A stretch of DNA of 55,285 bases from Nemertoderma westbladi (lineage: Eukaryota; Animalia; Xenacoelomorpha). Location: the NCBI GenBank assembly GCA_032718475.1, contig JAUCBJ010000408.1, positions 1 to 55,285 of the forward strand, written 5' to 3'. The notes beneath the pieces are model-generated. The model made no database searches, was not told the origin of the DNA, and saw only the letters and a program-made list of their open reading frames with translations. Shown in pieces: positions 339 to 31,079 of this stretch (the first letter of the stretch is position 1; the number at the start of each line of letters is the position of its first letter). The position numbers and the translations under genes are program-made.

Positions 339-3300
339 GTGATTGCTCTATGGCTGTCGCAGGGGGCGTCAACTTTATACTAGACCCCGATGTATTTGTT
401 AATCTCAGTAGAGCCAGGATGGTTTCCCCTACTGGTTTGTGTCAACCTTGGTCATCAGCAGCTGATGGGTAAGTAAACACAACACCAGTTCAATTGATAT
501 TGTTGACCAGTAAAAAGGTATCACATGTTGCTCAAAGGTATTTGAGCAACCATTATTAATATTTAATTCTTAAAATATGTTTTATTCGAGATATTTTCAT
601 GTTTCGATATTTTTCAATATAACCATCACGAGGACGAGAGGTGAATTAATATCTCGTCTCAATGTTATATTATCAATCTAAAGAAAAGAACAGGTTATAG
701 CGGCGCGTTATTCCAACCAAAACAATAAACTATAGTCCAGAGAACAGGTTACAGTTATATTTCTGAGAGTAATCAGCTGTTATTTGCGCTGATTTTCACC
801 TGGAGAGGGATGGATTTTGATTCATTGCGTCCAGTTTCCAAGTCCATCTTTTCTGATTAATATACTTTGGAAATATCTTTAGATATGTTCGCGGCGAAGG
901 ATGTGGAATCCTGGTTCTAAAACCTCTTCACAAGGCTATCACTGATAAAGATAGAATATGGGCTGTTATACAAACTGGTTCAAATCAAGATGGTCATACA
1001 ACAACTCCAATAACCGCACCATCCGGGGTAAGTTATCTATTATCATAATATATCTGGAACATAACTTAACCATTTTATACCTGCGGTCAATGAATCTTTT
1101 AACAACTGAGAATACATATTCAGTTCATATGGTCAACTTTTGTAATGCTAGAAAATATGCCGCTCTAGTAAAATAAATAAGATGCACCGCGCCGGAGGTT
1201 GATGGCTTACCACACCCTCAATTTATTTACTAATTTTTAAATAAATTTAAATAAAAATAATTTACTTTGCTATCCGGACAGGAGACCTTCGAAATTTATG
1301 AAGACATATAGAGTTTATTACCATTTTTCACTTCCCTCATTTTGGTGCGCAGAAATGTTGGTATATCTGTTTGTAGCACAAAATATTATTGAAATGTGGT
1401 TGCACCAATTCCTCTATCCAGTTTCAAAAATAATAAAAAAACTTTATTATCTTCCAGAATTTAAATATTTGATTTATTTATTTTAAATTTTCACATAAAT
1501 GAGGGAGGTGAAAATGGTGCTCAAGTCCCTAATCAGCCTAAATCTGCTGGCATTGCTTCCCAAAGGCGATCGAATTGCAAAGACTCTTTGAACAAGTACC
1601 GAGTTTGTACACAGTAAGAGTAACTAACTTTTTTTTTCGTTTTTAGATGCAGCAACAAGCCTTAATGCGTCAGGTTTATACCAAAATAAACGTGGACCCT
1701 GCAGACATTCAGTACATTGAGGCCCACGGTACCGGTACGCCAGTTGGTGACCCCATAGAGGCGAGATCGTTAGGAGAAGTTATTGGTCGATCTCGGCCAG
1801 ACGACGCCCCGCCATGTTGGATGGGTTCAGTGAAGAGTAATATCGGACACCTGGAGTCTGCAGCAGGTACTGTGTAATCGTTTTATTGTTAATATTTTAT
1901 AATATTGAAAATCATATTAGGCTTTTGTCATCATAATATACCTCAGATTAATTGCATATCGAATGACAACCTCCACCATGCTTGGTGCCTTTATACGATG
2001 ACAAATATTTTTAATCAATAAATTTCCGAACAGCAGTACTAACTTTTACGAGGTTACTTTATCATATCATACTAGACCTCAATTCTGTTCATTTTGTCTT
2101 ATGATATGTGGAAATGTCGAAGTACAAATACCTTTTCCCTTTTTCACCTTTTCGACTTATGTGTGTATAGTTGAAGAATGGTTAATTATTTTGGGGATAC
2201 AAAAATTAATAGCTGAATAGGGTTGGTGCGCGAAAAAATGTTGGCCTAGAAACAATTGACTAAGGGGTAGGTAACAAGGTGCCCTGAATCGAGTGGCGAG
2301 GTGTGTTTTTTGTAAAAAACGCGAGGAAACGGTCGAAATGGAGGGTTTAATGGTTGATGGTGGAAGACAATTTTGAAAATCGGCTTTGATTGGCTGCTAC
2401 ATATTTGACGTCATTACAAAGTGCTCTGATAATTTTTTATCTTGGTTTCTATGGATAGAGATTTTCGATTGATTCAAATACACATTAAATCTCAATCATT
2501 TCACATGTGGCTTATATCAATTGAAAGCTAAGAGTCTTGCGCGTCTTTTGGCACTACACAACCCGCCACTCGATTCAGACACCTTGTTATCCCTTATTCG
2601 ATTGTTTCGAGCCCAACAATTTTTCGCGCACCAACCATATTGTGTTATTTTATGTGCGATGGATATGGAATTTAATTCTTTCTTTACTATTACAGATTTT
2701 ATAATATAAAAATAACACAATTATTTTAATTTAGGTGTTGCTGGAATAATTAAAATATTGCTGATGATGAGATATGGCAAAATAGTTCCAACGTTACATT
2801 ACTCAGATGATAAATGCAATAAGAACATCGATTTTCAGTATCTGCGAACCAGAGTTCCGACTTCGGTGGAAGACTGGCCAATTGATAAGTTTACTGGGAG
2901 GCTCGCTTGTGCAAACTCTTTCGGTTATGGAGGGAGCAACTCCCATGCCATTATCAGTCAGTACTTTCTTCCCAAACAACCCGACCTTCTCAACCGAACT
3001 GATGTAGTTTGCATCAGTGGCAACACTTCCACTACTGTGAAGGCCATTGCATCTGATATGATAGATAAGCTACGGCAGGGTGTAGATGACCAGTCTAGAT
3101 ATACTTACAGTCTCCAAGACATCGCCTACACCTCCTGTTGCCGCAGAACTCATTATAAATTCAGATTGGCGATAAAAGCCGCGAGTTTGAAACAGTTAGA
3201 AGATAATTTGAGTAAATCGATTGAATTGGAGTTACCGAAACCGGAAACTGCCAATATAAATACAATTTTTGTTTTTTGTGGAATGGGTGCGAATTGGGCA

Positions 3301-6300
3301 GGGATGTGTACAGAGTTATTGAAGGTTGAGAAAGTGTTCTCCAATAAAATTTATGAAATTGATAAGCACTTCAAGGAGATAAGCGGGGGTATGAGCATTG
3401 TTGATAGACTTCAACAGAAGATTGATGATAAAGATCCAAAATGGTCTCAACCTATTCTGTTCGCCTGTGAAGTTGGATTGGTGGCATTGTGGAAGTCATG
3501 GGGAATCGAACCTAATGTAGTTCTTGGTCATTCTGTTGGGGAGGTCGCCGCAGCACATGCTTCTGGGATGCTGACGTTGAATCAAGCAGTCCAGATCATC
3601 TACCACCGCGGTCGTCTGCAAGCCGAAGTTACGGGAGGAAAAATGATGGTCGTGGGGAAGCTACCGGTGGAAGAGTGTCGAAACATGTTGATGGAATACG
3701 ATGGTAAAATAGTCATAGCCGCGGAAAATAGTCCTACCGGTTTTACAATCAGTGGCGATGCTGACATTATAGATGAATTTGTCGCAAAATTAACAGCACT
3801 CAATGAGGCAGAGAATAGGGGACTTTTTATTCGTGTCTTGGACGTGCCTTCGGCTTACCATAGTCATCATATAGACCCTATATGCGATAGGCTGACAGAA
3901 TCATTAAAGGATCTAAGACTTCGTTCGGATAAAGTACGAATAATTTCTACAGTGTCTGGGGAACATGCGTCCCGTTTAGACTTCGGACGGCCGAGATATT
4001 GGGCTGATAATATGCGGAGACCTGTTCTGTTCAGACAGGCAGTCTCCAGGGCGTTGGAACAAAATTCAAACAATGTATTCATTGAGATTGGCCCTCAGCC
4101 AGCACTCAGAATGTACATAAGAGAAATAGCCGAAGGGATAAAATACTCCTTAATTCCATCGATGAAGCGGAATTTAGAAAGGGAATGTATACTTCAGTCG
4201 GTCTGTGAATTATATCAAATGGGTTTCAATCCTAAATGGATTGCTTTTTATAAAGATCGACAACGCTATCCTGTTGATATACCGCGCTATAAATTCAAAT
4301 TGCAGAAGTTGTTTTTCTCCCCAGAGGTAAACATTGCCAGACGTATGGGAGGTTCTAAATCTTCACATTCGTATTCCCATCCTTATGTGGAAAAAATACC
4401 TGGCGAGAAATTATTGTTTAGAACAACAATCAGTAAAGACAACTTGGCTACTGCTTACTTGTACCAACATGTGTTTGCTGGTGCAATTATTGTACCAGGT
4501 GCATTTTTTACGGAGGTGGGTCTCGCATGTACTACAAAATCCTTTGGTGAAAAATGTAAACCAGAAAATGTACGTCTAGATATAACATTTTTGTATCCTC
4601 TACAGTTAAACGCAGAGATGAAAACAATTGTTATAACTGAAGTTTTTCTGGACGAAAACTCTAACTCATGTACGTATGCTATTTCTAAAGATGGAACAGT
4701 TCATTGTCAAGGTAATGCCATATTCAATGAAAATCACAGAACATTGACTCATGTAGATATTGAAGCTATCGCACGTCGTTGTACAACAGATGTAGCTCTT
4801 GATGAAATGTATCAGTTTTTAGAGGATTTTGATTTTTACTTTGGACCATTGTTTAAAGCATACCGTCACGGCACTGCTAAACGATATAAATTTAAGGAAT
4901 CTTTGGTGAAAATAGATTTAGCCGAGGAAATATATTCTCAATCGCGTAAAACTTACTTACATCCTGTAGTTTTGGACAATTTACTTCGAATGACTGGCAT
5001 CATGTTCTTCGGTTTAGGTGACTCCAGCACAGAGCGCTTCCTACCACGGCGTCTGCATAGTGTGATTGTACGGAAACCTTGTGTGTCTAGTATGTGGAGT
5101 TATATCTGCCATGTTTTTGATGATGAAAGTTGTAACATATCCAATGGAATTGTGTTTGACGAACATGGTGACGTGATTATTGAAGTGCGTGGATATTTAT
5201 GTGCGAATATCGGTAATATGCCAAGGATTGCCGAAAGGTTTGCTTATAAATCTACCTGGATCTCTCCACCGGAACTTAGTTTGGATGTATTTAAGATGGG
5301 TGTGGAACATGTTAAAGACACCTCTATTTCATGTGTTAAAGATGTCAAAGCACTTATTTTTGCGGATCCGAGTGGAATTGGGCATAAGTTATTTGATAAA
5401 TTATCCAACTCTAGCCAGATTATCAAACTTTCTGAGTTTAAAAAAACCGATTGGGAAACAAATGAAGATGCTCTGAATACATTATTTATCCAAAATAATA
5501 TAAATATTAATGAATTTGATGTGATTCTTCATCTATGGAATATTAATTTATTGATTTTTGATGATCGAGATATAGAAGAAATAATGGAATACATATTTAT
5601 TGGCTGTGCAAGTTTAAGGCAGTTGATGAAGTTGACACAATCAGATTTTAATGTTCCTCTCAAAATTATTACAACTACATCTCAAATCAGTTTCTGCGAC
5701 GATGACCGTTTCCGATATAGAGCTGCCAACTTTAACAAAGATGACACATTGCTTCCAAGGTGCCTCGAAAGCGCTTCAGTTTGGGGTATGGCCAGGACTC
5801 TTATTAAGGAAACTTTGTCGTGGGACATACAAGTAGTCGAGCTAGCACACCCAAATGAAACTGAGCAAGAAATGTTTTTGCAGGAGTTAGTTGACAATAA
5901 CTACTGCAAGTTTTGTGAGGTTTTGTTTCACAACCGTAGTGTGTTTGTTCACGAATATATGAGGCTGGGTCCAGATGAAGGAATTAATACACATCGTGAA
6001 AACTGTGGTTCTAGAAACAATCAACTTGTTGTTAAGTCTTCGCATTCCGAATTTATTCAGAACATACATGCAACAATAGATGAAGAGGAAGAAATTCGTC
6101 AAGAAAGTCTCAAAGTTATTGTTTCAATTGACACTGCAACATTTCATCAACACAAACTATATCCATACACTTTTGAACAAGCTGATAACACCAAACAATT
6201 TCTTTGGCCTTATGATAATTCAGATAATTATTCGTTAGTTGCTTTGGACCTTTCTGGTTCAATAATTAAGCCAAAAGGAAAAAGCGCTTGGAAATCTGGT

Positions 6301-9300
6301 GAAAAAGTTATTGTTTGTGGACCTCATCAAATATCGTCGCAACTAGCTGTTCCAATTGGTCAGGTTATTCGAAAGAGTGATATTCCACCGAATATAAACT
6401 GTTACTGTTTGTCATACTATTTTTTTGCTTGGGAGTTACTTTGTAATAAGTTATATATAAAGAAAGGGAACACTGTCCTTCTTATAGGTAACAAAAATAC
6501 CAATTTTATTGTTGGTGTTGTTAAGATGTGTATTGAGCAGCAAAATGGAACAGTAATATTCGATGAGACAAATATGCCAAACAATAAAATTGATTATATT
6601 ATTACTTTTGATGGTATTACTTCTGATATTTTGGATAAACTTGGTGAGAATATCCACCATTCAACGAAATGTGCCATAGTTCAATCTGTGGGAAAGTCAG
6701 TCCATCAAAGCCCTATATTTGGCCAGGTGCAATATATTATGGTGAACCCAATTGAAATACTTCAAAATAGCAATATTGAGATGAACTTGGAGAAGGCCCT
6801 TAATTGGTTAAAACCAAACAAACAGAATTTAAAAAAACCAACATTTTGTATACCTATCAAAATGCTACATTTGAAATCTTCAAAAATGCCTGCCAATTTT
6901 ACTGGTTTGGAAAATTTTGAAATACCGGAAAACAACTCAGTGATCTCAAACAAAGCCGTTTCTGTGCTTGATTTATTTTCAACCATCGATGATGATTGTA
7001 TAGTGAATAACAATACAGTTCCAATAAAAGTTACAAAGAAAAATTTGTTTCGAGTCAATTGCAGTTACATTGTAGTTGGTGGCAATAGTGGACTGGGTAA
7101 AGAGATTGTTGGGTATCTGGCTTCAAGAAACGCAGGTTTTATTGTATCGATGTCAAGATCACCTCCTTCTTCTCAAGTGAGAGAATATTTTGATGGTTTA
7201 CAAAAAACATATAATGTAAAAGTTTATTCAGTAACTGCGGATGTAACAAGCTATCAAAGTCTACAAAGAGCCATCGAATCTTTATATGAAAAAACGGACA
7301 ATAGAGAAATCAAAGGTATATTTAATGGAGCTGTTGTTTTAAAAGATGTCATGATTCAAAATCAGACACATGCTGATTTTGTTGAAGGATCCAGTACAAA
7401 AATAAGAGGTGCATGGAACCTGCATATTTTATCTAAAAAAATGAAACTCAAACTGGATTACTTTGTTATGCACTCCAGTACAGCCTCGGTATTTGGTAAT
7501 GTTGGACAGTCATCGTATGCTACCGGTAATGCCTTCATGGATGGTTTATCTTTACACAGACGTCAGCTAAATCTCCCTTCGATTTGCATCAATTGGAATG
7601 TTCTTAATGTTGGTGTGGTAGTAGGCAATGAGGCTGCACTCCGAATTTTTAGTCAGATTGGTTTTATTGGGCTCGAAATTAATGACATCTTGATGTGCTT
7701 GGATTACGCTCTTTTGTTAAACTTTGCTCAGGTATCATTCGGTAATTATGACTGGGGACAATTTTACAAGGCTGCATTAGCATCACCGATGCTTCGAAGC
7801 GGCAGTCAGAAGATGAGAAGTGTTATGGAAGAAGGATATAAACTAACTGGAGGCTTGGAATCGTTTGGCCCTGAATTAGGTTTGGATAGCCAGGGCTCCG
7901 CAATATCAGATATCATTAACAGTGAAGGGGGGAACCGAATAAATGCTATTGAGACTTACCTAATTCATCTGGTCAGTTTGATTTTTGCCATTGAAATTGG
8001 AACTTTTAATAGTGAAACCTCTATTTTAAGTATGGGCTTAGATTCCATGTTGGCAATGAACTTTATTTCCAGGATCAGAGATTCCCTAAAAGTTAACCTG
8101 CAAGTTGCAACACTTCTTAATGGTGACACCAATATCGTGTCACTTACAAAATTGATATTTGATGGCCTTCCAGGTAGTGGGAAATTCGTTCAAAATTCAG
8201 AAGTTGAAGAAATCAAACTGCAAGACTACTTTACACTGGTTCAGTTTAAACAATACGAATTACAGAAAGCTGAACCAGAATGCATTGCTCAGCATATATT
8301 GACTACGTTCTATCTATATGATACAAACTGTGATCCTGCATTTTGGAAAAAGTTATTAAAACATAGTATAGACAGATATCCTGTATTCAGGACAACTGTT
8401 GAAAAGACACCAGTAACTAAACTGCACAAGTATGGAGTAAAACCAAAAATTAACAACGAATATGAAGTACAATTCGTACAGATCGAAGGCTCAACAGATG
8501 CGGAGGAGGCTTTAAGAGCCATTGAAATTCAGGCTAAAATGCCCTTTGATTTAGATAATGTTATCCCTATAAGAATGTGCTTCGCCCAACTGGATAGCAC
8601 TCGAGCTTATATGGGTCTAGTATTTCACCACATGTCCGTTGATGCTTTTTCTGTGAGCCATTTTTTGCATGACCTTTTGTCATCACAGAAATACTTCTCA
8701 GCTGGCGCCGAACCACCACCAAGAAGACATGTCTATGAGCTTGGGAACCTGCAGCACGCGAGGGATACCCTGGTGGAGGAAACACGAACAACACTTGAGA
8801 GTTTCTGGAAGACGGCGATAACTAAGGACATGGATACATTTACAAGTATTCCATTTGCCAAACAACCTCGACCCGAAAAATTTGACAAGAATCAAGGAGG
8901 GACAATTAGAAAAGAGATGCCACACAATTATATTGATTCAGTCAATAAGTTTTTGGATGAACATAAAGTAACACTGTTTCAGCTGTGTATGTCGACTTAT
9001 CAATTACTTTTGCATAGATACTCCGGGCAAAAACATATCATAGTGAGTGCCCCGGTTGATACAAGGATGTCATTTCCTCAGTTTGCAGATGTAGTGGGAT
9101 GCGCAAGTAACGACACACCGATTGTGGCTGAGTTTACTGATCCAAAAGAAACATTCATGGGTTTTCTTAAACGGATGCAAGTAGTAATGAACCAATCATT
9201 AGAACATAGTTTACTATCAGCATATGACATTGCTCGTGTTTGTTCTGTGAAGGAAGATGGATCAATGAACTCTATTTATCAGCACGCTGTGGTTTTGGAC

Positions 9301-12300
9301 GAAAGGAATTTGTATCTGGGAGGAACTCGTCAATTCGACAAAAAATTAGCGGGTATGTTACAAGGCACCGATTTGCTGGAAATCCGTTTGTTAGGTGCCT
9401 TTTTAGATACACGTTTACTAATTAATAGGGATTCGGGAAAGCAAGCTTTACAAATAGTACTCAATTACAACGAAACCATATTTTCAGAAACGGATGGTGA
9501 GAAAATATTTGGCGATTTTTGCGAACTTCTATTGTTTTTGACTAAGAATCCCGAGGCATCATTATCTGATACACCGATAGATTCAGAAGCGCCTAAACGC
9601 CTATTGCTTGATGGGTGCGCCCCGAGTTTGGAATGCTTGGTTGATATGCACACAAGCATAGATAAATATGACTCTGATGTGTTTAAAACGTTAAACAACA
9701 CAGACTACACATTTGATACTGACACAACTATCATTAAGATGTATGCGGAAGTTGTCAAAGAACACCCTGATCAACCTTCAGTGATATGTGATAAATATAC
9801 ATTGAAACATAAACAGATTGATAAAAAATCTAATGCTTTAGCTAATATGATAATAAAACGTTTGGTCCAAAGTGAAGCTACTGAAAATATATTTGCTATT
9901 CTACACGATTCAATAGATTCATTGCTGTCTTGCTTAGCTATATGGAAATTGGGTCTAACAATCGTACCAATTAACTCAGATTTGCCAATTCAAACGTTTG
10001 ACCAAGTAATTGCGAACATAACTTTAAGGGATCCAATAATTGTCACAACCAAGAGCTTGTATGCCTCAATGGTTGGGCTCCAAAAAAAGAAGTACAAGCC
10101 TATTATATTCGACTCTAATGATTTACCTGAGGTTGAACTACTATCGCGGATGGACTTTGGCAGTGACTACGCTTGCAGATATTTCCACGATGTTGGCGAC
10201 GGTAAGATTATCATAGTTAATGTGCGACATTCTGCTATACTAAACAGCATGCATTGGGTGTGGGGTAACTTCCCATATAAGGAGTGCGATGTAGAATGTG
10301 TTAAAGCACCCCTGACACACATACAATTCCTATGGGAAGTTTTCTCCGCTCTCCTTAAAAATATCAGGGTCTTGGCAGTTTCTCGGACAACGTTAACCAA
10401 TATGAATTCATTGGTGCGATTTATGCGCGATGTTGGAGTTTCTCGGTTGCATGGCAACACTGATACCTTTTGGAAAACATTTTTAGCTAATGAGGACGTG
10501 GAGAATGGGTCATTGAAAAAGGTACGATTTTCTAAATAAGTTTTTATAATATCTTTATAATATTCAATAAATTGTCGACGGCTACATTTAGTAATTATTA
10601 CGTCCCATACTGTGCTGTAAATGTACAGTGGCAAAGGCAATAAACAATATACTATAATTATTGTCTGTTCGAGAACGGAATATACGGAATACGGAATATA
10701 CCTGAAGCAAATTAATAGGCATCAGTAGTTATACATGATTTATTTGCTGAAGTATAAATTAATATTCTAGAAGTGCATGGATAAACGTCAATATCTTAAT
10801 CTTCAGATCAACCACGCAGGGTGATGCTTGGATTCTTTAGTAGCACACCAAGTTATGCAATATCCTGACTGGATGTTTTATTGTTATTATTGTAATATTT
10901 TATTTATTCTTTCGTTTTAGATTTCCTTATTCTTAACAAAAGCAGGTAAAAGCGTTTCCACGGAAACTCTACATTCGCTACGGAAAACCTTTCCGAATGC
11001 CAACATCCTTAACGTTTACTCGGACATTAGAATTCCAGGCGCCGCATTAACAAACTTATTTGGTCCGACCGATACAATCGATAATTATATTGTTGGTAAA
11101 CCTATTTATAACACCAAAGCTTATATATTGAGGTTGGTATTTTGGATAATAATGTTTAATTTAGGGAGGCATTACTGTAGAAGAACGAAGTACTACTACT
11201 ACTACTACTATCGGCATGCTGCATTGCAGCTGTATTTTTAAGAATGCTGTGCCGGCTTGTCGACAAAATTGCGCCGCCACAACTCCCTATCATTCATGAC
11301 GTTTGCTAGATCATCCGCATAAAAGCTGTGATAAAGCTACCATAAAGGCTGTGATTTCAGTGAATGAAATTTGTAACGTCCGACACATTGTAACGTCCGA
11401 CACTATTATTATTTAATGTATTTAAAGTCTAAATTGCAGTGTGTAGTGTAAAATGCATAAATAAATAAAAATAGGTTTCAATAATTGCGATTTTCGACTC
11501 AAAATTCACACCTTAGTATTTTGATGATATATTTCTCAATTGTTGGTGAAATTTAAAATCTGCAGTGCAATTTAGAAAACCTTTTCGAAAACTAGAATAG
11601 TTGAGCTTCTATTTGAACCCAAAAATATTAATATACCAGTCTTCGGCATTAATTGCAATCAAAAGTAAAATATGTACAATAAAAAGTGTCCTATTTTTGT
11701 AACGTCGACACCTTTTTAAAAGTCAACTGTTTAAGAAGAATAACGTTTCCCAATGCAGGGTATTTGCGATATTCTGAAAGATTTATAAATTGTCCCATTT
11801 ATTCAACGCAATCGGATGTCAAAAATTCAAGTATTTTCGTAAATTTAAAGAAAAACATTCAAAAATCAAGAATGTCCGTAACGTCCGACATCGTGGAATT
11901 GCCCATATAAGAGTACTGGTACTACTACAGCCATAAGTAATCGAACCTTAAGTTTTCTTATCTTACTAAGTAATGAATTTTATGTTACTTCCAATTCCTA
12001 GAAACGCCATTCAACGCTACCCTTACGTATTGGAAGGTCCTCACATGACTTCCGGATCCATGATCCCAAGTAACAGAAGTCGTACATGCTCAAGCATACC
12101 ATCCTTTGAGCTTATGCTCATGCGATCATACATTTCCTAAGGAGTTTCTTAGTTAATTTTTCCAAATCGTAGTCTTCTTGGAGTTACAAAAGGACCGTAT
12201 ACTCAAAGCAGCCCGTGATAAACTGTTGTTAACTGAGGAGCCGTTGGGCTCCCTCTAGTGATTCTGAGAGTACTCCTAAGTCATCCGCAAAGTTTAGGAA

Positions 12301-14933
12301 CAAGTAGGTGCTTTTACCATCACCCCATCGTCATTATGGTGGTCTAAGGACATGCGTAGAACATAGTTAACTACAAATATGAATAAGAATGATGCAAGTA
12401 TGTCACCCTGAACTCATAACACTTCAAGTAAAATCGACCTAACATAATATCGACCTAATATAATAACGTATAAACATTAATAAAATAATTATTACAGTAA
12501 AAACTTCTTTATTTAACATATACACAACGAGATCAAATATATCAATCATTATATTCAAATAATGCTGTTCATAATTAATTGATTGGTATTCATCCAAAAT
12601 TATGTTTGAACTACATTAACATAAATATTTTTGTAATATTTATAATTGTAGAATTAAATTTTAGTTTGTATTCCCTCTTATTATTGGTTCTTGGATGGTA
12701 TAAATTACGTAAATTGTAATTTTGCTCGATATTATCAGTTCCAGAGATGAAGTTCGACCCATTGATCATGTTGGTGCTCTATACATGACTGGGCCAGGTA
12801 TTGAAGACAACATACAAGGGGGAATAATAAAACAATTTGATGAAACAACAATGTAAGTGACAATTTATCGACATTAGATAATCGATAGATTAACATAGCT
12901 ATAAAAGATTTGGATTCGGGAGGGGTCATTTAATGCAATTTCACATTAAACATGTAATTTCAATTTCTGTAAAATGTTTGAAAAATTATAATAAAGGTGT
13001 AAATAAAATACTCTGATGAATATATTATATCATCGTGGTTCAGTTTCTTTTCTGAGAACCAGTCTCTCTGTATATATGACGACATTTACCGTATGGATTG
13101 AAGACATCCGACCCAACAATGGCAAGGAAAAGGAATTTTTCTTATTAATAATTTTATTTCACCAGGCTGATTGATACACGAGATGTCGCAATGGTAAACT
13201 CAAGTAACCAGATTGTATATGTTGGAGAAAACACATGGCAGAATCTAGGAAGTATTAATCACGTTAATGTAAAAGATGCTATAGAGTTTATTAAAGAGGG
13301 TTTGTTATTGTAAAGGATGCAAAAGTTTAATTACATAATAAATAAGAATTTAAGTTAAACTAACAATCAATAACAATTACATTAATTTTTATTAAATTAT
13401 GTTTATTTAATATTTAATCTTAGGATCAATGTTTACCAAATCTCATAAAAGTAATCGATACTTGCGACTCGATACGAAGAATACTCAGCCGGTGATCGCC
13501 TGGGGTGCCAACAGCAACTACACAAATAAACGGATACCGGTCGCAAATATTTCTAAGATTACTTCTTACATGTCGCATGGTTAGTCGAGACAGGGAGGGG
13601 AAACACGACGCAAATCCCATCTCGGCGAATTATTATTACAATTTTAAAATATCAATTATTAGCAGGTTACAGAGGCACGTTATTCTAACCAAATCCATAA
13701 ACTAAAGTTAATCCAAACAGGTTACCGTGGAACGTTATTCTAACCAAAACAATAAACGAAACACAACAGAACAGGTTACAGTTTGATTTTTTAGAGTAAT
13801 CAGCTGCTATTTGTGTAGATTTTTTCCCTGGAGAGAAATTAATTTGTATTGCGTCGAAAGTCTATCTGAGTTATTCAGAACTGGATGGCTTGAAGAGGGA
13901 CTTGCAGGATTACTATGTTTGCTATGAATATTGTTTAGGTTCCTGGGTTCCTTAAACCTCTGAACCTACACCCCTTCCCCAGGGTGAATTCCTTCCATAC
14001 AAGGGGAAAGTGTCAAATATACACAATAAATTAGGGAGAAAAACTGGTACTGAAATTTAGTTATTTAATGGAATTTATTTCAGTATAGTTATGTGGGCGA
14101 CGGGCATGTTAACAATAATAATATTATTTTATTTTTAGGACAATACGCCATGGTGCTGAGCACTAAAGAGAAAGAATATGTGTTCAACTGCCGGAATCCA
14201 GACACCCTAAACAGATGGTTGGTCGGTTTGCACGGAGTCCTGGATGAGTTGCTGCCTAGAACGGTGAACGAAGCTGGGGAGTACGTTGATATGGGGGCCG
14301 CCGAAGTTTGGGAAAGTCAGCCCCGGAAAATGACAGACATTCCAGGGGTTGTAAGTTATCAATTAATTACAATTAATTATTTGTAATTTATTATCGTAAC
14401 TGTATGCGAAAGAGATGCCACAATCTGATACATCGCCCACAACTGGGGCTTCCAATTTCAAATATAATTTGTTACAATTACGTTTACAGGTTTACTAAAA
14501 TACGAGTTATAAATAATCCATAATTAGTCACAATTGTTTATTTTGACTCTTTTATTATTATCTTAGAATTACATGAATGGTTTGTATGAAAGTATAGATA
14601 AGTTACATAAGTATCATTTGATTTTGTAAATATAAATAAATGAAAAAAGCAAATTATTTAATTATACCCGCTAATATTTATTTTGCTTGCAAATTTTTTG
14701 AAAATCGTTTTGATTTAAAATTTTTTATCAAATTCCAGATACGAAAAATATCATCGGCTTTTCAAACTTTACCACGTGGAGTCGAAAGAAGAAGAGGTTC
14801 AACTGTAGAAGAAAAGGGCAAAGAAAAAGGCCGGCAAAGTGTTGATATACAGATGGAGGAACACGAGAAGGTTGTTAAGAAAAAAACTTCGGGGGACGGC
14901 AGAAAAACTAAATTCTATATTGACTCACGATAA
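339..14933 (+). CDS. Multi-exon type I PKS-NRPS-like hybrid (KS-AT-DH-psiKR-ER0-KR-ACP-C-A0-PH), 5' end outside the window. Exons 339-468, 883-1027, 1647-1866, 2735-10521, 10921-11132, 12739-12852, 13166-13299, 13424-13579, 14139-14350, 14739-14933
   Basis: All nine introns are GT-AG with matching phases, and the joined frame is open to TAA at 14933. Motifs: [31 protein letters not shown]; AT GHSVG (3526-3540); [13 protein letters not shown] (4468-4500); KR GGNSGLG (7078-7098) and YATGN (7516); ACP GLDSM (8035-8049); C domain HHMSVDA (8626-8646); A-domain remnants ([23 protein letters not shown]). The C-terminal exons are slightly less certain than the core. Confidence 0.9.
687..830. repeat. 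Interspersed repeat family, with copies near 13660-13850 and a partial copy at 24295-24355
   Basis: Shared core cgttattc(c/t)aaccaaaacaataaac...agaacaggttacagtt...agagtaatcagctg...cctggagag seen at these loci. Confidence 0.75.
2221..2636. mobile_element. MITE in a PKS intron, ~85-bp imperfect TIRs
   Basis: ggttggtgcgcgaaaaa...aacaaggtgccctgaatcgagtggcg at the left end is mirrored by cgccactcgattcagacaccttgtt...tttttcgcgcaccaacc at the right end. Confidence 0.85.
2735..10521 (+). CDS. Giant 7.8-kb exon of the PKS (end of KS through the N-terminal half of the A-like domain)
   Basis: ORF 2758-10539. Acceptor ttag at 2731-2734 gives G|GT-VAGIIK, continuing the KS HLESAAG motif. Donor AAG|gtacga at 10521/10522. 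Confidence 0.93.
11191..11320 (-). mobile_element. Short 3' fragment of an RTE-like LINE with a (TAG)n tail
   Basis: Near-identical to 22608-22718, the 3' end of the RTE fragment; preceded by a (tac)n microsatellite. Confidence 0.8.
11365..11908. mobile_element. Non-autonomous DNA transposon remnant
   Basis: Repeated gtaacgtccgaca motifs (11373, 11390, 11879). The internal block at 11500-11565 resembles the interior of the MITE at 53700-53790. Confidence 0.5.
11909..12072 (-). mobile_element. Older RTE-like LINE RT fragment
   Basis: Aligns with 23042-23160; the minus strand encodes [18 protein letters not shown]. Confidence 0.65.
13166..14350 (+). CDS. PKS exons 7-9: end of the A-like domain and a PH domain (PLC-type PH resemblance)
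   Basis: Spliced translation [95 protein letters not shown]. It shows G-x-hydrophobic-x-K in beta1, R-Y-L in beta2, and a C-terminal helix with the invariant Trp (RWLVGL). Confidence 0.75.
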
Positions 14934-15071: not shown

Positions 15072-18000
15072 GTAATTATATTCTTTAATCCAACATATGG
15101 AATTAATAATTTATAAAATAGCTAAAATAATTAATTATAAAATGTATATCTACTAATAATTAAAAATGCAGTTAAACGAGTTCGAGGAGGCGAGGTTATA
15201 GGTTAATCGCTCAGGTGTCGGTCGGGGGTTCTATACTCATGAGGTACAGGGCGCACCTTAATACTGATAAGTTGGTCGGAATTCCAAGGCATTGTGAATA
15301 ATGTGCGGCCGAGGTAGCGTTACTGTTACATAACCAACAAACACAGTTATCCATGGGCCTTCAGCAGTTGGGCTTCTTACACAATCGATGATGGCAGCCA
15401 TTGGCGATTAGCTGGGCTGCGGCTCTGCGGCGGAACCCAGTTAGGGACACGAGATTTATTTCTGCACCATCGCAGTTATCGATTGCGTTTAGTACGGCAG
15501 TTGAGGACGATAGTTTGTAATAGAAGGCTCTGTATGTACATGTTCTAGTTGCGGTATGTTTTCCAGTGAGGTAAAAACGGTGCATCAATATGTTGCTGAG
15601 GGGTAGACTACTGAGGTCCATGGCCGCTTTGCTGAGTCTAGTGATATATGTTGCATATTTGCTTTAGTTGCAATACAGATGGAGCTGGCCACACCCTTTT
15701 TGTATAAGTGCTGATAATGCGCGGATGGACCATTTTTTGTGGAGAGAATGACGCCTAGGTAGTTAAAAGTCGTTTTGAATTCAAGTTTGGAGCCATTGTA
15801 ATATAATATGTCGCTTTGAGCTAACCGTCCACCTTTGCGAAATTTTACTATTTTTGATTTTGATAGGTTGACCGTAAGGTCGTTGACCCGGCAGTAATTA
15901 GATAACCTGTCTAGAGCGTCCTGGGTGGTCTTAATTGAATCCCCAACTAATGACAAGATCATCTGCATACATAATAACAAGGCAGAGGGTTCTCATGAGA
16001 ATGGATGGAAGATCTGCCACAAAGATACTACAGTATGTAAACAGTGACAGTGGAGACTCTCTGGACTGCCACTGGAGAGCCAAAGGCTCGACAGAGTCTT
16101 ATGAGGAATAAATAATGCAGCCTTTTTAACGAAACTTAGCAAACCAACATAAACACCAAAGTAAAACCTCATAAGATAGCATTATATCGAACCCCTTGTC
16201 AAGTAGGCACTCTCCTTTGATCTTTTTTAGGTCGATTTTTAAAGGATTTTTCCAGCAGAACGGCGAAAGCTAGAACGATTCTGTTTGCGCGATCTTGTAG
16301 ATGTCCCGAGCGCGCACAGCAGAGAAATATTTGGCAAAAATCTGTTAATTAATTAATTAGTAATTAGCGATTAAAGATTTCTAATTGATTTTTCTCGAAA
16401 AGTATTTGGTTTTTCCCCTAGCAACGGTGATTTTTTTTTGTTCATCTCGGTAAGATCTAAAAAAAGTTCAGTCATCGCTATGGCCCTCCTATTACTGTTA
16501 ATTAGTACTAATTAGCCGAAAACTAATTAGCGTCGTAACTCGAAAACACTAAGAGCTATGAAAAAACGTAACATCACAAAGTTGTTCGGAATTTTATTCT
16601 ACACAAAAAAGTCTTTGGCGCCGATGCCGTATCTACTACCGTTAATTAGTAATTAACTAATTACTTAATTACCTAATTGGCGGGGGGGCTTTGCGCCCCC
16701 CCCCCCCCCCCCGTCCCCCAAATCCTTATTCACAAGGTGTATCAAAGCGGTTTACTATTTTACAAATGATAATTACTCTAAAATCTTTTGAATCTAACTA
16801 ATTAACGATTTTACTAATTAGTAAAGTTCCCCAAATTAATTAATAATTTATCCAATCCGGCTGCAATTAATTAAACAGCTGAGTCGTCAGCCTGGTTCAG
16901 CAAAAATCAGCAGTTGGTAGTATGCTCAAAAAACTGTGTTCATACTACTGACTTATGCCGGTAGCTACTACCTAGCTCTGTCTGTCTGTAGCTAATCATA
17001 GTCTGTAGTGCCCGGTGTACTCTGGGACTGCTATGGCACCTTCAGTCCTGCAGTCCGAGCTGTATGCACACGCTGTACAGCAGTACAGCGCCGCGGTACC
17101 TGTTGCTGTTGTCCGTTCTTAAAGCATGTACAGATGTTAGATGTAAGGGGACGCTTTAGGCTTTCTGGCAGTTATTTAAAACGTTGTAGGCAGATGCCCA
17201 AGGTTGGCAATAATGTTCCCCATGTTCGGGCGCACTCTGAATGCCTAAATTACGGTTGTTTGGTGCAGTTAAAAGTTGCCCAACTTGTAGGCCTATGTAA
17301 TTGCGTTATTTCAATACCTCACCCAGGGCTATCTGACGAAATGGATTTTGACCATCAAGGTGGGTAGAGGCCATTGATGGGTATCTGATGCATGCAACAG
17401 AAAATTTCATCAGACCGAAATCATGCAGCCAGGACATAGACTGTTTAAACAGTCTGTAAACTGTAACAGTAAGGGCGATAGCTTATCACCTTGTATGACT
17501 CCTACAGTTTGAGTAATCGGTTCCAATATAAATGCATACGTAGTTTACTGCGATAAGTGCCCATATAGCCGCAATAAACTTTCGGCTGACACCAAAAGTT
17601 ACCAGACGTTGATATAGGGTTTCTCTGTTGACTGAGTCGAACGCCTTCGTAAAGTCTACAAATACGCAATACGCATGACCTCCAGCTGGTTGTAGGGCAA
17701 CTGTTATATGATTATATATACGTTTAACGGCCATCAGGGTTGAATAACCTCGGCGGAAACCATATTGGGTAGCGGGGAGAATACCTTTGTTCTCAGCAAA
17801 CAAATATAGTCGCTCAAAAATAATAGCTGTATAGACCTTTAACAGGCACGATAGGAGAGCTATTCCGCGATAGCCGTCTGGGGATGTCTTCTTTCCTTTT
17901 CCTTTATAGAGCGGGAGTAGATTGAGGTTAACCAAACTACTGGGCAAGCTCCTAAGGAAAAATAGAGGGTGAACAAACTTAGAAGATACGGGAGTAGTTG

Positions 18001-18137
18001 TAGAAGCCCTGATTTTAGTGCCTCATTTGCCACTCCATCAGGCCCGGCTGCCTTATGGGGCTTCGTATTTGATATTGCGGCTGCTATTTCGGACGGCTCT
18101 ATTTGGCGATCTAGCTGATCATTCGGTTGGTCCGGTA
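15072..18137 (-). mobile_element. 5'-truncated LINE (L2/CR1-group-like RT), decayed and interrupted by an insertion of ~16031-17460
   Basis: RT motifs YRGIALL, QYGFR, VFVDFTKAFDSV and QGDKLSPLL (17470-17947) continue after the insertion as MYADDL, NLSKSK and FNYLGV (15585-16030). 14-bp TSD ttaaacaggctaat at 15058-15071 and 18138-18151. Confidence 0.88.
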
Positions 18138-19448: not shown

Positions 19449-21137
19449 TTACAATTGGCAAACTGCATCGACAATGTCCTTCCTCAAAATCAGCCATCTC
19501 GTGGTGTATATTAGCGGCGGCGGAATTGTGCGACAATACCAAAAAAATAGTTGAATTTGCTGCAAAACTCTAAGGTCTGTCATGTTAGAAGAGACCTTGT
19601 ATATAAACAAAAGAGAGACAAAGATAGGCAGCAGAAAAATTGCGCAAGAAATTTGCACGATAATTATAGTTATGACGTCGTAGATATGTTGGGGGTGGAC
19701 CGCGGTGTACCTTTTGAGACGACGTCTCTCGCCCCTGATATTGACACTTTCTTCCATGACTAATGGAGTTCTCGTGTGTAACCAGTTGTTGGTTCCTGAA
19801 GCTGTCGTCACGTCAGAACACGCCGAATTTGACCTCAGAATGGCGCTCCTACTATTCCTACTGTAGTATATACTTTTCTTTCCAGTCGCAAGTCGGGGTT
19901 GATTAGACAGTGCGGGAACTATGTTCACGATCGGAGGCCCGGGAGGAAAATCCATCGATATCTTCTCGGATGGGGATGTAGGCGTGGAGTAAGAATGGTA
20001 CGACGGAAGTGGGATCACTAGCTCTTTTCGTGGACTTGGTGGCAATGACAAATATCGTGAAGATTTAAATCTAGTTGGGGGGATTAATGTCCCATTTTTA
20101 GTATATAATGCGCCTTTGTTGCAGTCTGCGCTATTACTCCTTGTTATTCTTCCCAGTGAAGGTGATAATTGGTAATGCGAAACGGTCATTTCTTGTAACG
20201 GTTTCTGTACAGTGAGAGGCGCTTTTAGTGGCCATGAACTCAACTTCGACCTGGACTTGTGTTGCTTCCCCACAATGTGTTCATTCAAACTCGTTTGACT
20301 TGGTATGAAGGCTGAATTATCACGCGAATATTTCGACATTGGTGGAGGCAAACTTGATCCTTTTTGTCTAAAACCTCGGATGTACGAGACATCCCTGTTG
20401 ACTAGCGACTTTGAGTGACCGAGGACAGCAACGAATCTGATTTTCCTCATATGGCGCCATTCCAGTTGAGTTCGGGTAGGAATATTTCTCATGGCTATTA
20501 GCATTCCCCTAACCGCAGCGCATTGAACAACGAATGCAGCGATAAACAATACAGCGAATAACGATTGATAGAACGCGTGAATGTTCGCCGTTATTGTCAC
20601 ATTGAACAATCGTGTTGCGTAACAGCCTCCAAAATTCTTCCAAGGTTTGAGATCAGGGTAAATTGCGTAGGTAACGATAACGACCGGGAAGCTGACAATG
20701 TAGACGACAGTGATGACAGCATCCTGGGACATACACGCCACATTATTGGTGTAATGCAAAGGGACAGTCATACGCGAGTAACAATTGCGAGAGAGAATAA
20801 GCAAATTGAACAAAGTGACTATTAGTAGAGAGTCTTCAATGACCCACAACAAAACAATGCAAATATCCATATTGTATTGCGCGATTCCCGTGGTTTGATC
20901 TACCAAATACACCAAACCTAATACGCTCACAATCAGGTCGCAGGCGGACTGACTGGCTATAATATGCGACTGATTATTTTGAAGCCATTTTGATCGAAGG
21001 AATGTGATAAGAAACGCGCCGTTGATCAAACACCCGAGCACGCACAGTATGGCGAGAGCTAACGCCGTGGGATAGTTGGAGTTCAGTTTCTGTTGGTTCT
21101 CCAAGGTCCATTCCCTTTCCACAGTAGGGTAGCGCAT
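19449..21137 (-). CDS. Divergent orphan rhodopsin-like (class A) 7TM receptor, intronless CDS, long ICL3
   Basis: 562-aa ORF with 7 hydrophobic segments. TM1 GCLIN, TM2 SACDL, TM3 Cys with SRNCY at the DRY position, TM6 FLLP, TM7 PPLIY. A ~270-aa Ser/Pro/basic loop lies between TM5 and TM6. Confidence 0.8.
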   Translation of the reverse strand: MRYPTVEREWTLENQQKLNSNYPTALALAILCVLGCLINGAFLITFLRSKWLQNNQSHIIASQSACDLIVSVLGLVYLVDQTTGIAQYNMDICIVLLWVIEDSLLIVTLFNLLILSRNCYSRMTVPLHYTNNVACMSQDAVITVVYIVSFPVVIVTYAIYPDLKPWKNFGGCYATRLFNVTITANIHAFYQSLFAVLFIAAFVVQCAAVRGMLIAMRNIPTRTQLEWRHMRKIRFVAVLGHSKSLVNRDVSYIRGFRQKGSSLPPPMSKYSRDNSAFIPSQTSLNEHIVGKQHKSRSKLSSWPLKAPLTVQKPLQEMTVSHYQLSPSLGRITRSNSADCNKGALYTKNGTLIPPTRFKSSRYLSLPPSPRKELVIPLPSYHSYSTPTSPSEKISMDFPPGPPIVNIVPALSNQPRLATGKKSIYYSRNSRSAILRSNSACSDVTTASGTNNWLHTRTPLVMEESVNIRGERRRLKRYTAVHPQHIYDVITIIIVQISCAIFLLPIFVSLLFIYKVSSNMTDLRVLQQIQLFFWYCRTIPPPLIYTTRWLILRKDIVDAVCQL

Positions 21138-22599
21138 GGTTCGTCAGTAGTCTATAAAGGTTCGAGTAAAAAACACATTATGTAGGCCTACCTTTACAAT
21201 ATATTACGTATTTTGACAATAATGGCGATCTGGATTCCCACTTACTCAAATAAATTAATGATTTTTAAGTAAATTAGCACCAGCAATATTCACCGCTTAT
21301 TAGCGAAATCTTCAGTATGTTTCTGACTTGAAAACAATATATAAAAATATAAACCCATATCTCACGTACACTCTACCATTTTAGCATCATAGCGTTCGAA
21401 CACAATTTCCGGACACGCATCACATCCAGACATGCGCACCGATTCCGGAAAAAACATCATCGTGTTTTGAAAAACACCGCGGCTGTATAATTAGACAGAG
21501 AGCGCACACCAACATACATTACAGTGTTGCACCATAAGTTTCTACACTCACCTTCTCGACCTACTGTAGAGTAATAATGTTTGAGATTCTTAAAATATAT
21601 AAACTACTCATACATAATAAATGTTCAATAATTAATATTAAATTAATAAATAAATTATTAAATTGTTTAAATAACATAGGTCTAAATCTTATACAATTAT
21701 AAGTAGTATTTAACTCTAGGTTTTTATACGAATACTCTTTATATAATACGAGGCATCCCGTTCTTGGAACAGTGAGAAAAACCGTATCATTAAATATACA
21801 GTAGTATTGCCACGCCTAAATGTTGGGGACACTATCGATCATTGATTGATATTGATCCCTTCGGAGAAGCCATGAATTATGCAGTTGCTTCAAATACACA
21901 GGAAACAACGGAATAATAATATTATATAACTTTGGCATATATTCTCCATAAATAATATTATGATCTCTAGAAACTTACGTCAATTTGATAACCTTCACAA
22001 TCTATACTTTAGGGCTCTAAATAATTCTTGGAAAGTCACACCCAAATATTATAATACAGTACTATTCTATAAGCTATAAACGAAACGCTCGCGCCTTTGC
22101 AACATACAGTACAATATATAATGTAACTGTAATAAAGTGCAACTACAGTAGGCCTTTATACATATCAAAGTATATTTCACGTTCAATTTCGCAGTGTCAC
22201 TATGTATTACTTATTACAGTATTAGGGCCCATGTGAAGTACAGTTGTAGGCCTATAGACTTTCTGCTGTTATATTTTTCACTTTGCAGTTTACCCTCCAT
22301 CCATTGTGAAGAATACAATGATATTGAAGTTCCATAAACAAATTAGTATCAGTATCTGCACCAGGGTATAAGATGGGAATAAGATAAAATTTCAACCGAA
22401 ATGAAAACCTGATATTCTACACATTGGCGATGGCGATTCAGCGATTATTAGTACCGGTACCGGGACAGGCACAAATGAGAAAACGAATATGAATTGCGGA
22501 ATCTAAATATACTATATTTAAGAATTTATACCACCGATTGAATTTTTAGTAAGAATGTTATCATGTTCACGTATACAAAATAGTATCTAATGTATCCTA

Positions 22600-25836: not shown

Positions 25837-26796
25837 TTATATACTACCTGCATTCAAGTGATAAGCATCTTGAATAGTTTGAGAAATGGTGTCCCATGTC
25901 TCTAATACATTTACTGGGTTATTTTCTGAATGTGGGAATTCCTGAAGAAATCGTTCTATTTGAAGCCGACTGAGCATATCTGCGGCTATATTATCGTTAG
26001 TCCGTACATAGTTTGTGTATACCATTAACCCATGTTTTGTACATACTGCATAGAGTTGGCGTATCATCGCCATTGTTCGTTTATTATTTGAGCTGCCTTT
26101 TTCTAAGGCGGCGATATTGCACAAGTTGTCCGTGTGAATGAGCAGACGTTTCCCAGAATATTTGTGTCCGAACAGTAGTACTGCCATAATTACACCTTTA
26201 ACTTGAATGTCATCTTTATAATCTACTAACCAATTTGGGAAGCTCATCGCAAACCATTGATTGTCGCGGACTACTCCAATAGCAAACAATGTTGCATCTG
26301 TATAAAGACTGTGTTCACTAGGTAGTATTATCTTGGGAAGTTGGAGCGGTGCTCCCCCAGCAGACAATGTGTTTAAAGCAATTTCCCCCAAATTTGAGAT
26401 CGTCGTTTATATCTGATGTCTTTTTTAATTCACTATATTTAAGAGGAATAGATATTGGGTCTAATAATCGACGCAAGAATATTCAGCTCGCCCATATTGC
26501 CTTAGCAATGAATGATAGGCGACCTATCAAGGACTGCACGTCTCTTTTTTGTAGTGTGCTACCTACTTCGACCGCTTTGAGTTTTCTTATTTCTTCAAGA
26601 TTTGCAGTTGAGTGTTTTCGAAAATGTATGGTCGGTTTTCAAAGGGACCGGAGAGGTAACCGTTTAGAATTTCCTGCACTAGAATGTCATCGACAGCTTG
26701 TGAGTTTTCGATTGCACTTCGGTTATTTTTTCGCTCTATTCTTGTATTTCTTGGTCCTTGATAACCGATGGATACTCCATTTTTGAGATCAGATAA
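25837..26796 (-). pseudogene. DIRS/Ngaro-like pol remnant: RT N-terminus and connection region plus RNase H; RT core apparently deleted
   Basis: RNase H YTDAT...IHTDN...NIAADMLSR (25837-26391). Upstream, QSLIGRLSFI..IFLRRL and NGVSIGYQGP..NRSA..GYLSGPF. No YxDD seen. Confidence 0.8.
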
Positions 26797-27334
26797 TGTG
26801 ACGGGATCCAGGAGGGATCCCGATTTATCCGGTGTGGTATTTAGTCCACGCGTCCCCGCCGTGTATAAGAGTGAAATAAAGATAACTGAGTTCTGAAGTT
26901 CGGTGTATAATAAGAGGTTATAAGATATAGATATATTGTGAATGTGTACAAGGTGGGATACGGTAACTAAAGTCCCGTGATCCCCTAACTAAACTAATTG
27001 GCTGTACCCTACGCTAGCACTGCTGCACTGAGATAACTGAATCACTGATTAATAGGTTATTGGTTATATTGCACGGTGGCCTTACTGCTACTCAATCGAT
27101 GCCATTCCCCCCTCTGATTGGTTAATACCCTTGTTGGCGCCCCGTGGAGTATTCCCGTTCACTCCACCTGTTCTCTCTGGGTTAGGGGTTTGGCCCCTGA
27201 CCCTCCATTGTGTGCTTCCTTCCCACTCTCATTGGGATTGGCACGAGTTGGTTAATTGCCCAATCTCGTGGCTCCCAATATTGCTTATCGGCTAATAACT
27301 TTATGGGGTGTTGGCGGGATTGAATAAGCTAACA
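26797..27334 (-). repeat. 3' LTR of the BEL/Pao element
   Basis: Matches 40481-41018; I found one substitution by eye (T26954 vs C40638). The adjacent ctccccccc (27335-27343) is the PPT on the minus strand. Confidence 0.96.
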
Positions 27335-28044
27335 CTCCCCCCCATGCTATCTTCCCGGTAAGAAGATAGCATCAACCAAAAAAAGTGCGCTACAATCCCG
27401 CTGGATCCCGATCTAGTATCGGGTGTGGGGTGGAATTCTTTTCTCTTGGAGCCGGCTTTCCAGGCCGCCCCCTATGGGTATGATAACGCTACCCTGTGTG
27501 CCTGGCGTCTCATGTCGGGCCGATCGCGCTCACCTCTTCACGCGATTTTTGTTTCCCCAACACTTTCGCCCTACCTCCCCTCTACTCTCACCCTAACTCT
27601 CTCATACCCCCGGACCTCCTCGTCCCTCACTCAGCCTCTTATTCTCCCCCCCCCACACTAGAATTGCGCTCGCACTCTCTCCGCACTTCACACTCTTATT
27701 CCGATTCTCAACTCCACTTTGACTGTTTTATCTCTCCTGACGAACCTCCCCCCCCCCTCTCGTGCCGCCGCACTCAAGAAGTGTGAAATTGTCAGTTGTC
27801 TCGTCCATAGTGCCATAGTCAATTGTCCCCCAGTCCCAGTAGCTAATTGAGAAAGGTTGTATGACTATAGTACTTACTCCAAACGTATGTATTTTACTGC
27901 TAATCGTATATACGTACATACAAATTGCACTTATATAGTTATTTGCATTAATTAAATTTATACTTAATAGTTCGTACGTTACATGCGGCGCCTTCCAGGC
28001 GCACCACTTCCCAGTCTCAGTCTCATTCCCTCGCCTCCGGGAAC

Positions 28045-28941
28045 TTATCTGTACCTCCTCACGTCCTCCTCCCTGGCCCGTTTCTTGGTTATCACCGCTC
28101 CTCTGGCATCATCCGCTTTCTGCTTCCGGACCTTTGCCGCCACTTCCTTGCTGATCCCGGTCGTCGGCTCCCTGGGCGTTGGTGTTATTAAAGCCCGATA
28201 CCGCTTCGCCGGTGGCCCCTCAGAATGGCCTGGTTGTTTCCCTCGTGTGGCGTCCCATAGGATCATCTTCATTGCCTTTGGTACGTGTTCCGCCAAGAAA
28301 TCCCTAAACTCCCTCCGGTTCTCTGGTGTCCACCTGTCCAGGTACCGTTGCGTGTTCATAACTCCGGCGAACGATGCCGCCGTAGCTACCTCTTGATAGG
28401 TAAACGGTAACCTTCGCTTTATGATTTCCATGTGGGTCTCCTGGTTTATGAGGAAGAAACCCCACTTGAACTCTTGGGCCTTCATGCGCTGGCGCGTCAT
28501 GGCCCCGACGTCGGCCCACTCCTCGAACCTCGTGAACTTCTCCTCGTCGCTCATCCAGTCGCACTCGCGCCCGTAGTGTCCCCGAAAGTGGCACTTTGGA
28601 CATCGGTTATGCAACCGTGGACACGCCCCCATCCTGTGACTTGGTTCTCTACAATAGAGACAAAAGGTTCCCCGTTGGAACCGGTATAGGCAGCTGCTTT
28701 CCTGATGGGTCTGTCTCCCACAGTAGTCGCAGCCGAGTACCAATGTCTCGCGTCCCACCTCGTCCTTCGTCCCAAGCGATCTCCGCGGTCTATGGAGTCG
28801 CTGGTAGGCAAACTTCTCCACGTTTCTCTCCCTGTTTACGTCGATCTCTCCGCCCCTCTTGGGCATCGTCTCCCCGAATACTATCCGTGGCGCCGTCCCC
28901 GGTTGCTCGCCCAACCTGATGGTGCTCCCCGCGAAATCCAT
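28045..28941 (-). CDS. Accessory ORF with three CCHC zinc knuckles, inside the BEL element
   Basis: CDYCGRQTHQESSC, CLYCREPSHRMGAC and CPKCHFRGHYGREC all fit C-x2-C-x4-H-x4-C; basic C-terminal tail. Confidence 0.75.
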   Translation of the reverse strand: MDFAGSTIRLGEQPGTAPRIVFGETMPKRGGEIDVNRERNVEKFAYQRLHRPRRSLGTKDEVGRETLVLGCDYCGRQTHQESSCLYRFQRGTFCLYCREPSHRMGACPRLHNRCPKCHFRGHYGRECDWMSDEEKFTRFEEWADVGAMTRQRMKAQEFKWGFFLINQETHMEIIKRRLPFTYQEVATAASFAGVMNTQRYLDRWTPENRREFRDFLAEHVPKAMKMILWDATRGKQPGHSEGPPAKRYRALITPTPREPTTGISKEVAAKVRKQKADDARGAVITKKRAREEDVRRYR

Positions 28942-28950
28942 CGCCGGCCC

Positions 28951-30579: not shown

Positions 30580-31079
30580 TCCGAACACTACACTCGCTCA
30601 CCTGCAGGGTGGTGCCTTACCAAGGCGCAATACAGATGAGTGATGTATTAAGATGTTTCGTACAGTTCGATAATGGCCTACTTTTCTACTTAACTGCGCC
30701 TTTCAAGCTTAATTTAATCTAATTAATTTCGGAGCTAGTAAATCAGCCTAATTTACAATTTCCGTCCGTTACTTTTATTATGTTCTAGAACGACTTTCCT
30801 TGTGTTACCACTATTTTCCGATTTTAGCCCTATTCTATTTATTTATTTATTTTGCTTTGATTCTACTGTCCTACTACTTACTACTGCCTATGGATTTATT
30901 CTATTCTCTGATCCATATTCTGGCCTACTCAGTGGGCCTATGCAGTACAGCAGTATGCGTCGTGTGGCCACACGATTTATCCAGCTGTACTCATATGCCC
31001 CCCTCTCGCTACTAACTCTACTTACTACTAACTAATATCTATATCCTATTTACCCCTTTTGCCTCTTACTCTCTCTCTC

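Follow-up and report, generated by a model that had tools for sequence, protein, structure and literature searches.

A gene at the start of the window (the whole analysed stretch, a 55,285-nucleotide contig of Nemertoderma westbladi, JAUCBJ010000408.1) is predicted to encode an animal type I polyketide synthase (PKS), the spliced product of which ends in a condensation (C) domain, a dead adenylation core (A0) and a pleckstrin homology (PH) domain. We put at slightly above one half (about 0.55) the probability that this is a single gene for a synthase which likely builds a polyene, releases it through the C domain onto an amine or alcohol and docks at a membrane or a partner by its PH domain. 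Product release and the cellular site of animal PKSs that lack a thioesterase (TE) are open questions on which this gene bears. Related PH tails occur on annelid and bivalve PKSs, where they are apparently unreported.

Gene model and domain order

Ten exons and nine introns join into a single frame of 3,100 residues with one terminal stop, at 14933 (Table 1). All nine introns have GT–AG ends and compatible phases; this applies to the six junctions proposed in the initial annotation and to three further ones in the KS. The predicted domain order is KS-AT-DH-(ER remnant)-KR-ACP-C-A0-PH-tail. The gene is incomplete at its 5′ end, about 200 KS residues, including the active cysteine, lying upstream of the window. 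G+C content is higher in the exon than in the next intron in all 10 cases. The architecture put forward in the initial annotation is borne out by the continuous frame, by Pfam matches to AT, DH, KR, ACP, C and a partial AMP-binding domain (in exon 4, E 6e-13), and by profiles for the A0 and PH exons. The lack of thiolation (T) and TE domains also holds: Pfam detects neither a thioesterase nor a second carrier, and exons 5–10, which follow the first part of the A domain, give no carrier match. Its pseudo-KR and inactive ER stand in a weaker form, the former as a weak match and the latter as a barely detectable remnant.

The splice chain was judged by homology, using a bacterial adenylation profile for exons 4–7 and an animal PKS-tail profile for exons 8 and 9, both built without the window sequence. 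On the adenylation profile, made from 58 bacterial A domains, the four best of 1,229 six-frame open reading frames (ORFs) are those holding exons 4–7; exons 6 and 7, taken singly, are weak matches (E 0.9 and 3.8). The matched profile positions are consecutive, and the score rises from 93 to 119, 139 and 142 bits on adding exons 5, 6 and 7. Since the A core continues through these exons in profile order, the gene extends beyond the stop at 10539.

Table 1. Features of the PKS gene and of its surroundings in the window
Feature	Coordinates	Strand	Evidence
Exon 1 in window, KS N-terminal half (partial)	339–468	+	Pfam ketoacyl-synt E 6e-08; AG/GT ends
Exon 2, KS	883–1027	+	Pfam E 0.022
Exon 3, KS C-terminal half, both catalytic histidines (motifs 1719, 1848)	1647–1866	+	Pfam E 2e-25; motifs
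Exon 4 (7,787 nt), KS end through first two thirds of A0	2735–10521	+	Pfam, splice signals; A-profile positions 23–303
AT, active serine 3532	3265–4182	+	Pfam E 2e-59
DH, catalytic His and Asp motifs intact	4402–5217	+	Pfam PKS_DH_N and PS-DH
Pseudo-KR region and ER remnant	5218–7062	+	NCBIfam KR prefix E 0.09; ER profile −1.7 bits
KR, Rossmann and YxxxN motifs intact, LxD motif present	7063–7605	+	Pfam E 8e-45
ACP, serine 8044	7960–8157	+	Pfam PP-binding E 1e-06
C domain, HHxxxD intact at 8626	8242–9606	+	Pfam E 2e-38; best PDB match AB3403, 4zxh, E 7e-19
A0, adenylation core N-terminal part; A3 phosphate loop lost (~10168)	9673–10521	+	A-profile, motif alignment
Exon 5, A0 core continued	10921–11132	+	A-profile E 2.7e-4, positions 304–368
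Exon 6, A0 core continued	12739–12852	+	A-profile positions 367–390, in register
Exon 7, A0 core end (A7 Asp kept, A8 hinge degenerate) and helix into PH	13166–13299	+	A-profile positions 415–438
Exon 8, PH first half	13424–13579	+	PKS-tail profile E 0.018 among 1,229 ORFs
Exon 9, last PH strands, C-terminal helix with conserved Trp (to ~14246), tail start	14139–14350	+	PKS-tail profile E 5e-05; Pfam PH E 0.27
Exon 10, charged tail and stop; least supported exon	14739–14933	+	Splice signals; no homologue found
Dispersed ~120-nt repeat, 74–81% identity	689–807, 13716–13835, 46743–46849		
Reverse-transcriptase fragments, likely LINE, just past gene 3′ end	15585–15992 and 17486–18022	−	
564-residue ORF, hydrophobic stretches, long Ser/Pro-rich loop; divergent GPCR-like by eye	19449–21143	−	No Pfam match
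Three ORFs (189, 301, 548 residues), zinc-knuckle-like and RNase H-like stretches by eye, possibly DIRS-type	25837–30597	−	No notable Pfam match
BEL/Pao LTR retrotransposon, uninterrupted 2,113-residue ORF	31750–38091	−	Pfam
Intronless ABC transporter, ABCD type, 28 kb downstream of PKS	43323–45308	+	Pfam ABC_membrane_2 E 2e-89
Intronless HVSL-family gene	48787–49578	+	Pfam
Intronless TatD gene	50970–51935	+	Pfam

Synthase, condensation and adenylation domains

The features of animal type I iterative PKSs, KS-AT-DH-(ER)-KR-ACP on one chain, are present. Nine spliceosomal (GT–AG) introns, together with neighbouring retroelements and genes of eukaryotic type, mark the gene as host-encoded. The protein has the serines of AT and ACP, both histidines of the KS, the His and Asp of the DH and the KR motifs. 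The AT motif AYHS is common to 10 of the 11 animal relatives checked, fish and frog PKSs among them, and the AT presumably uses malonyl units. No methyltransferase was matched between the DH and the KR (5218–7062) by a profile from 12 sequences. On an ER profile from 62 fetched sequences the window scores −1.7 bits, as against 15–26 bits in six vertebrate relatives. Polyenes are the products of ER-dead animal synthases according to the accessible part of PMC7280274, so by analogy this synthase would build a conjugated polyene chain iteratively, by malonyl extension without enoyl reduction.

Two quick trees of KS-AT together with KR were calculated without bootstraps and without animal FAS and AFPK sequences; one bacterial row, having no KR match, was dropped from the first, and the second used a 17-row subset. 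The window PKS lies inside the animal PKS clade (SH-aLRT 100), as sister to the PH-bearing PKS of the annelid Owenia fusiformis (support 93 and 94) and outside the mollusc clade. Its PKS part groups with animals and not with fungal or bacterial rows; vertebrates, gastropods and bivalves are each grouped as expected. Taken by itself, this placement would suggest a lophotrochozoan source, perhaps an annelid. Homologue searches with the KR-to-A0 and C-A0 regions were dominated by bacterial NRPSs, and the Solemya velum protein P0061 was the only animal PKS among the 120 matches listed for the KR-to-A0 query. Vertebrate PKSs (fish pks1, budgerigar MuPKS) share the clade, the AT motif and an ER remnant with the window protein, which matches the fish and frog models at about 29–31% identity across some 2,000 residues; unlike it, the six vertebrate models compared have the ACP as their last domain. 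MuPKS makes polyene pigments, as summarised in a review (PMC7036892, accessible part).

The C domain itself is not the novelty, because PKS-C fusions with N-terminal introns are already described for a mollusc PKS clade in the available text of Lin et al. 2024 (PMC10764717). The mollusc proteins have the same KS-AT-DH-KR-ACP-C order, lack a TE, belong to the same animal PKS clade and come from genes with few N-terminal introns and one very large exon. The example given there ends after C. In the window protein, by contrast, C has both histidines, and the dead A core, the PH domain and the tail come after it, using six additional small exons. The fungal LovB (PMC6260248, in the part available) is likewise an iterative PKS with a dead ER and a terminal C domain, but in its C domain Arg replaces the second His and the acceptor side is blocked. 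His-Arg as in LovB is also seen in the C domains of abalone PKSs, and a scallop C domain has SHxxxD as in fungal terminal C domains (set P0288, P0293, P0295, P0298). Fungal and bacterial PKS-NRPS hybrids have an active A domain, a T domain and a release domain; the window protein has a dead A and no T. Nematode PKS-1/NRPS-1 (nemamides) and rotifer NRPS-PKS are, according to the accessible portion of PMC10531068, animal genes that also mix PKS and NRPS domains, but the nematode enzymes are multimodular with working peptide modules, a distinction drawn from their description. The gene is placed as a member of the animal PKS clade that is most like terminal-C iterative PKSs in its working.

Both catalytic histidines of the C motif are retained in the window copy and in none of the 10 animal relatives, one of which has the second; the window motif ends in Ala, not Gly. 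Since no other C domain shares more than about 23% identity with it, the preservation of both His and the Asp suggests selection on catalysis. A tree puts the 11 animal and 28 bacterial C domains on either side of one branch (support 99), but long branches meet there. C domains are able to release chains (PMC10510592, in the text available). As neither TE nor T is present, the product probably leaves through the C domain, and release onto an amine or alcohol would be the likeliest role of this domain; the proposed acceptors are a free amine or alcohol, or an aminoacyl group on a separate carrier. Offloading is stated to be unknown for most related TE-less AFPKs in the accessible text of Lin et al. 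2024 (PMC10764717). The window copy, being the only one of the 11 compared animal PKS C domains with both histidines, offers the best opportunity to test whether an animal PKS releases its product through C.

The initial annotation took the A domain to be dead, and its motifs agree: the A3 loop is lost, the A7 Asp is kept and the A8 hinge is degenerate. The profile match stops at position 437 of 530, so that the small subdomain and the A10 lysine are absent. The A10 lysine is required for adenylation (PMC10510592, part available), which makes A0 inactive by prediction. The PH domain stands where the small A subdomain would begin. Judged by these motifs, the gene does not encode a working PKS-NRPS peptide module; we infer that A0 is a structural partner of C. 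The nearest matches of A0 belong to a rare subtype, with 'FVD' found in six of 1,001 domain hits and five of these six among the top eight scores. We take this subtype to be the beta-alanine/Ebony type.

The C-terminal PH domain and its relatives

PH domains are modules typical of cell-signalling proteins. Among 21 animal-type PKS proteins (17 named and four placed by the tree), three database gene models have a PH-like C-terminal end related to that of the window. In Owenia fusiformis (P0274, CAH1799202.1), where it lies about 130 residues past the ACP, and in Solemya velum (P0061, KAL5012951.1), the domain directly follows the ACP region and there is no C domain; in Sinanodonta woodiana (P0294, KAL3888379.1) it comes after a C domain without the second His. 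None of the three has an A core. They are named 'hypothetical', 'unnamed' or 'polyketide synthase' and have no PH among their precomputed Pfam families. At the curated cut-off, Pfam misses the PH domain in all four proteins, the window match being weak, and further cases are therefore probably unannotated. The remaining 18 relatives, some models of which may be incomplete, show no PH domain; they include all six vertebrate and all seven named gastropod models. A scallop model (P0392) has what appear to be the first two PH strands right after C and then becomes repetitive; the match, obtained with one of four queries, has a z of 5.0 and was equalled by 0 of 300 shuffles. A PH-alignment search among proteins of 192–2,000 residues, a range that full-length PKSs exceed, gave no match, and a metagenome scan found no relative.

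On a profile of the Owenia, Solemya and Sinanodonta tails, window exon 9 comes first and exon 8 second among 1,229 ORFs. The spliced window segment scores 40.7 bits on the tail profile, whereas the highest of 1,000 shuffles reached 10.9; pairwise comparison of the three tails with the window PH gives z-scores of 9.3–13.0. AlphaFold2 models of the Owenia and Sinanodonta tails (pLDDT 88.5 and 84.3) consist of seven strands and a C-terminal helix. Their top Foldseek matches are PH-fold proteins: ISP3, PLC-gamma, ARAP2 and PLC-delta for Owenia, and ARAP3, DAPP1 and GRK2 for Sinanodonta. The ESM Atlas gave PH clusters at 0.90 and below, with exon 9 at 0.87 and below, which is a lead only. The seven-strand sandwich, C-terminal helix and conserved Trp of the PH fold are thus modelled in two homologous tails and, by alignment with them, predicted in the window, in agreement with the PH assignment made in the initial annotation. 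The window PH, when spliced, reaches 32.8 bits on the three-tail profile, and no PDB chain exceeds 14.3 on a profile made from these tails, so the four tails look like one PH subfamily.

Since the PH domains are similar, an origin in the annelid–mollusc ancestor with later losses is a simpler reading of the sequences than two gains, and the domain was probably inherited from that ancestor. A grouping of the PH-bearing PKSs (five proteins) as one clade, named after the first tree had been seen, was rejected (p-AU 0.0003). The series PKS-C-A0-PH, PKS-C-PH, PKS-PH and PKS-C suggests a route by which an NRPS module decayed inside an animal gene.

The initial annotation had proposed a membrane-recruited synthase, the C domain of which would pass the polyketide to an acceptor at the membrane. 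The canonical phosphoinositide motif KXn(K/R)XR of the β1–β2 loop is found in none of the four PH domains, only the first Lys, in the first strand, being common to all; lipid binding is therefore possible and not predicted. This motif is a poor predictor of binding (PMC8282632, in the part available). All four domains are net basic (+5 to +10). The PH domain would dock at an anionic membrane or a protein partner, a partner being as plausible as a lipid. A specific tie of the PH to C-mediated transfer is not supported, since two of the three PH-tailed relatives lack a C domain. Its presence on proteins that have both C and A0, only C, or neither of them suggests a positioning or regulatory role for the entire synthase. 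A conserved signalling-type module shared with annelid and bivalve PKSs also offers a small, expressible handle on localisation. The 95-residue tail contains five overlapping basophilic Ser/Thr matches at four places (0.6 expected, p 0.0001); these hint at kinase control, three of the four places lying in exon 10, which is without homology support. The helix in exon 7 has a weak similarity to the Owenia N-terminal helix, with 3–6% of windows scoring as well, and this is not counted as evidence.

A PKS with a C-terminal PH domain was not known to the initial annotation, and a literature search of titles and abstract beginnings, with few subscription papers, likewise found no description of a PH-tipped PKS or of a PKS-C-A0. 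'Pleckstrin' and 'PH domain' do not occur in the main text of PMC10764717 and 12 of its 18 supplements, nor does 'pleckstrin' in the available text of PMC10531068.

Alternative explanations and gene neighbourhood

A bolder version of the preferred reading is offered tentatively. It holds that the PH-tipped PKSs of annelids and bivalves are an old family recruited to membranes by signalling, the window protein being its most complete form, in which an active C domain at the membrane would join the polyene to an amine to give a new acyl-amide signal or pigment, with the kinase sites of the tail as a switch. It is rather improbable that the same gene, PH tail included, has a C domain that shapes, cyclises or dehydrates the chain, or is structural like that of LovB, with release being spontaneous or left to a separate enzyme. 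The second His is missing from nine of 10 animal relatives, so that C catalysis is not conserved in the family; three of them have His-Arg like LovB, whose C domain is required to make the product but not to release it (PMC6260248, part available), and relatives with neither C nor TE exist. The window copy, however, with both His and the Asp kept at such low identity, speaks against this alternative. A condensation in trans is doubtful: here C would join the polyketide to an aminoacyl group from a separate adenylation-carrier protein, possibly an Ebony-like beta-alanine enzyme, and C-A0 would be the remnant of a full module. The closeness of A0 to the 'FVD' subtype is in line with this, as are the Ebony-clade A domains of annelids and those of amphioxus, which occur with C domains (PMC10531068, in the text available), but no such partner was seen among the long ORFs scanned in the window.

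As regards the PH domain, a role other than localisation, in which it stands in for the missing adenylation subdomain or forms a dimerisation or product-binding cap, appears quite unlikely. The position at which it starts, that of the small A subdomain, and the absent lipid motif would suit such a role; PH domains that follow an ACP, or a C domain without A0, indicate on the other hand that the PH is independent of A0. A shorter PKS, terminated by the in-frame stop at 10539 or just past exon 7, with the PH exons forming another transcript or a minor isoform, is very improbable. Retained introns would give in-frame stops after exons 4, 7 and 9, and there is an AATAAA at 10566, although this signal is common, with 14 sites between 10521 and 16000. 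Against an early end stand the A core running in register over exons 5–7, the distance of only 124 nt between exons 7 and 8, an in-frame stop just upstream of exon 8 and the union of PKS and PH in the models of three other species.

Downstream of the PKS, the nearest long non-transposon ORF is the GPCR-like one, which is arranged tail to tail with it. The ABC transporter, on the same strand as the PKS, looks like the peroxisomal acyl-CoA importer ABCD3, presumably, and the HVSL-family gene is taken to be USB1-like. With the TatD gene they make up three conserved single-exon genes in a row beside the intron-rich PKS, being either retrocopies or a lineage trait. Copies of the dispersed repeat of about 120 nt lie in intron 1 of the PKS, in the intron between the two PH exons and at about 46.8 kb.
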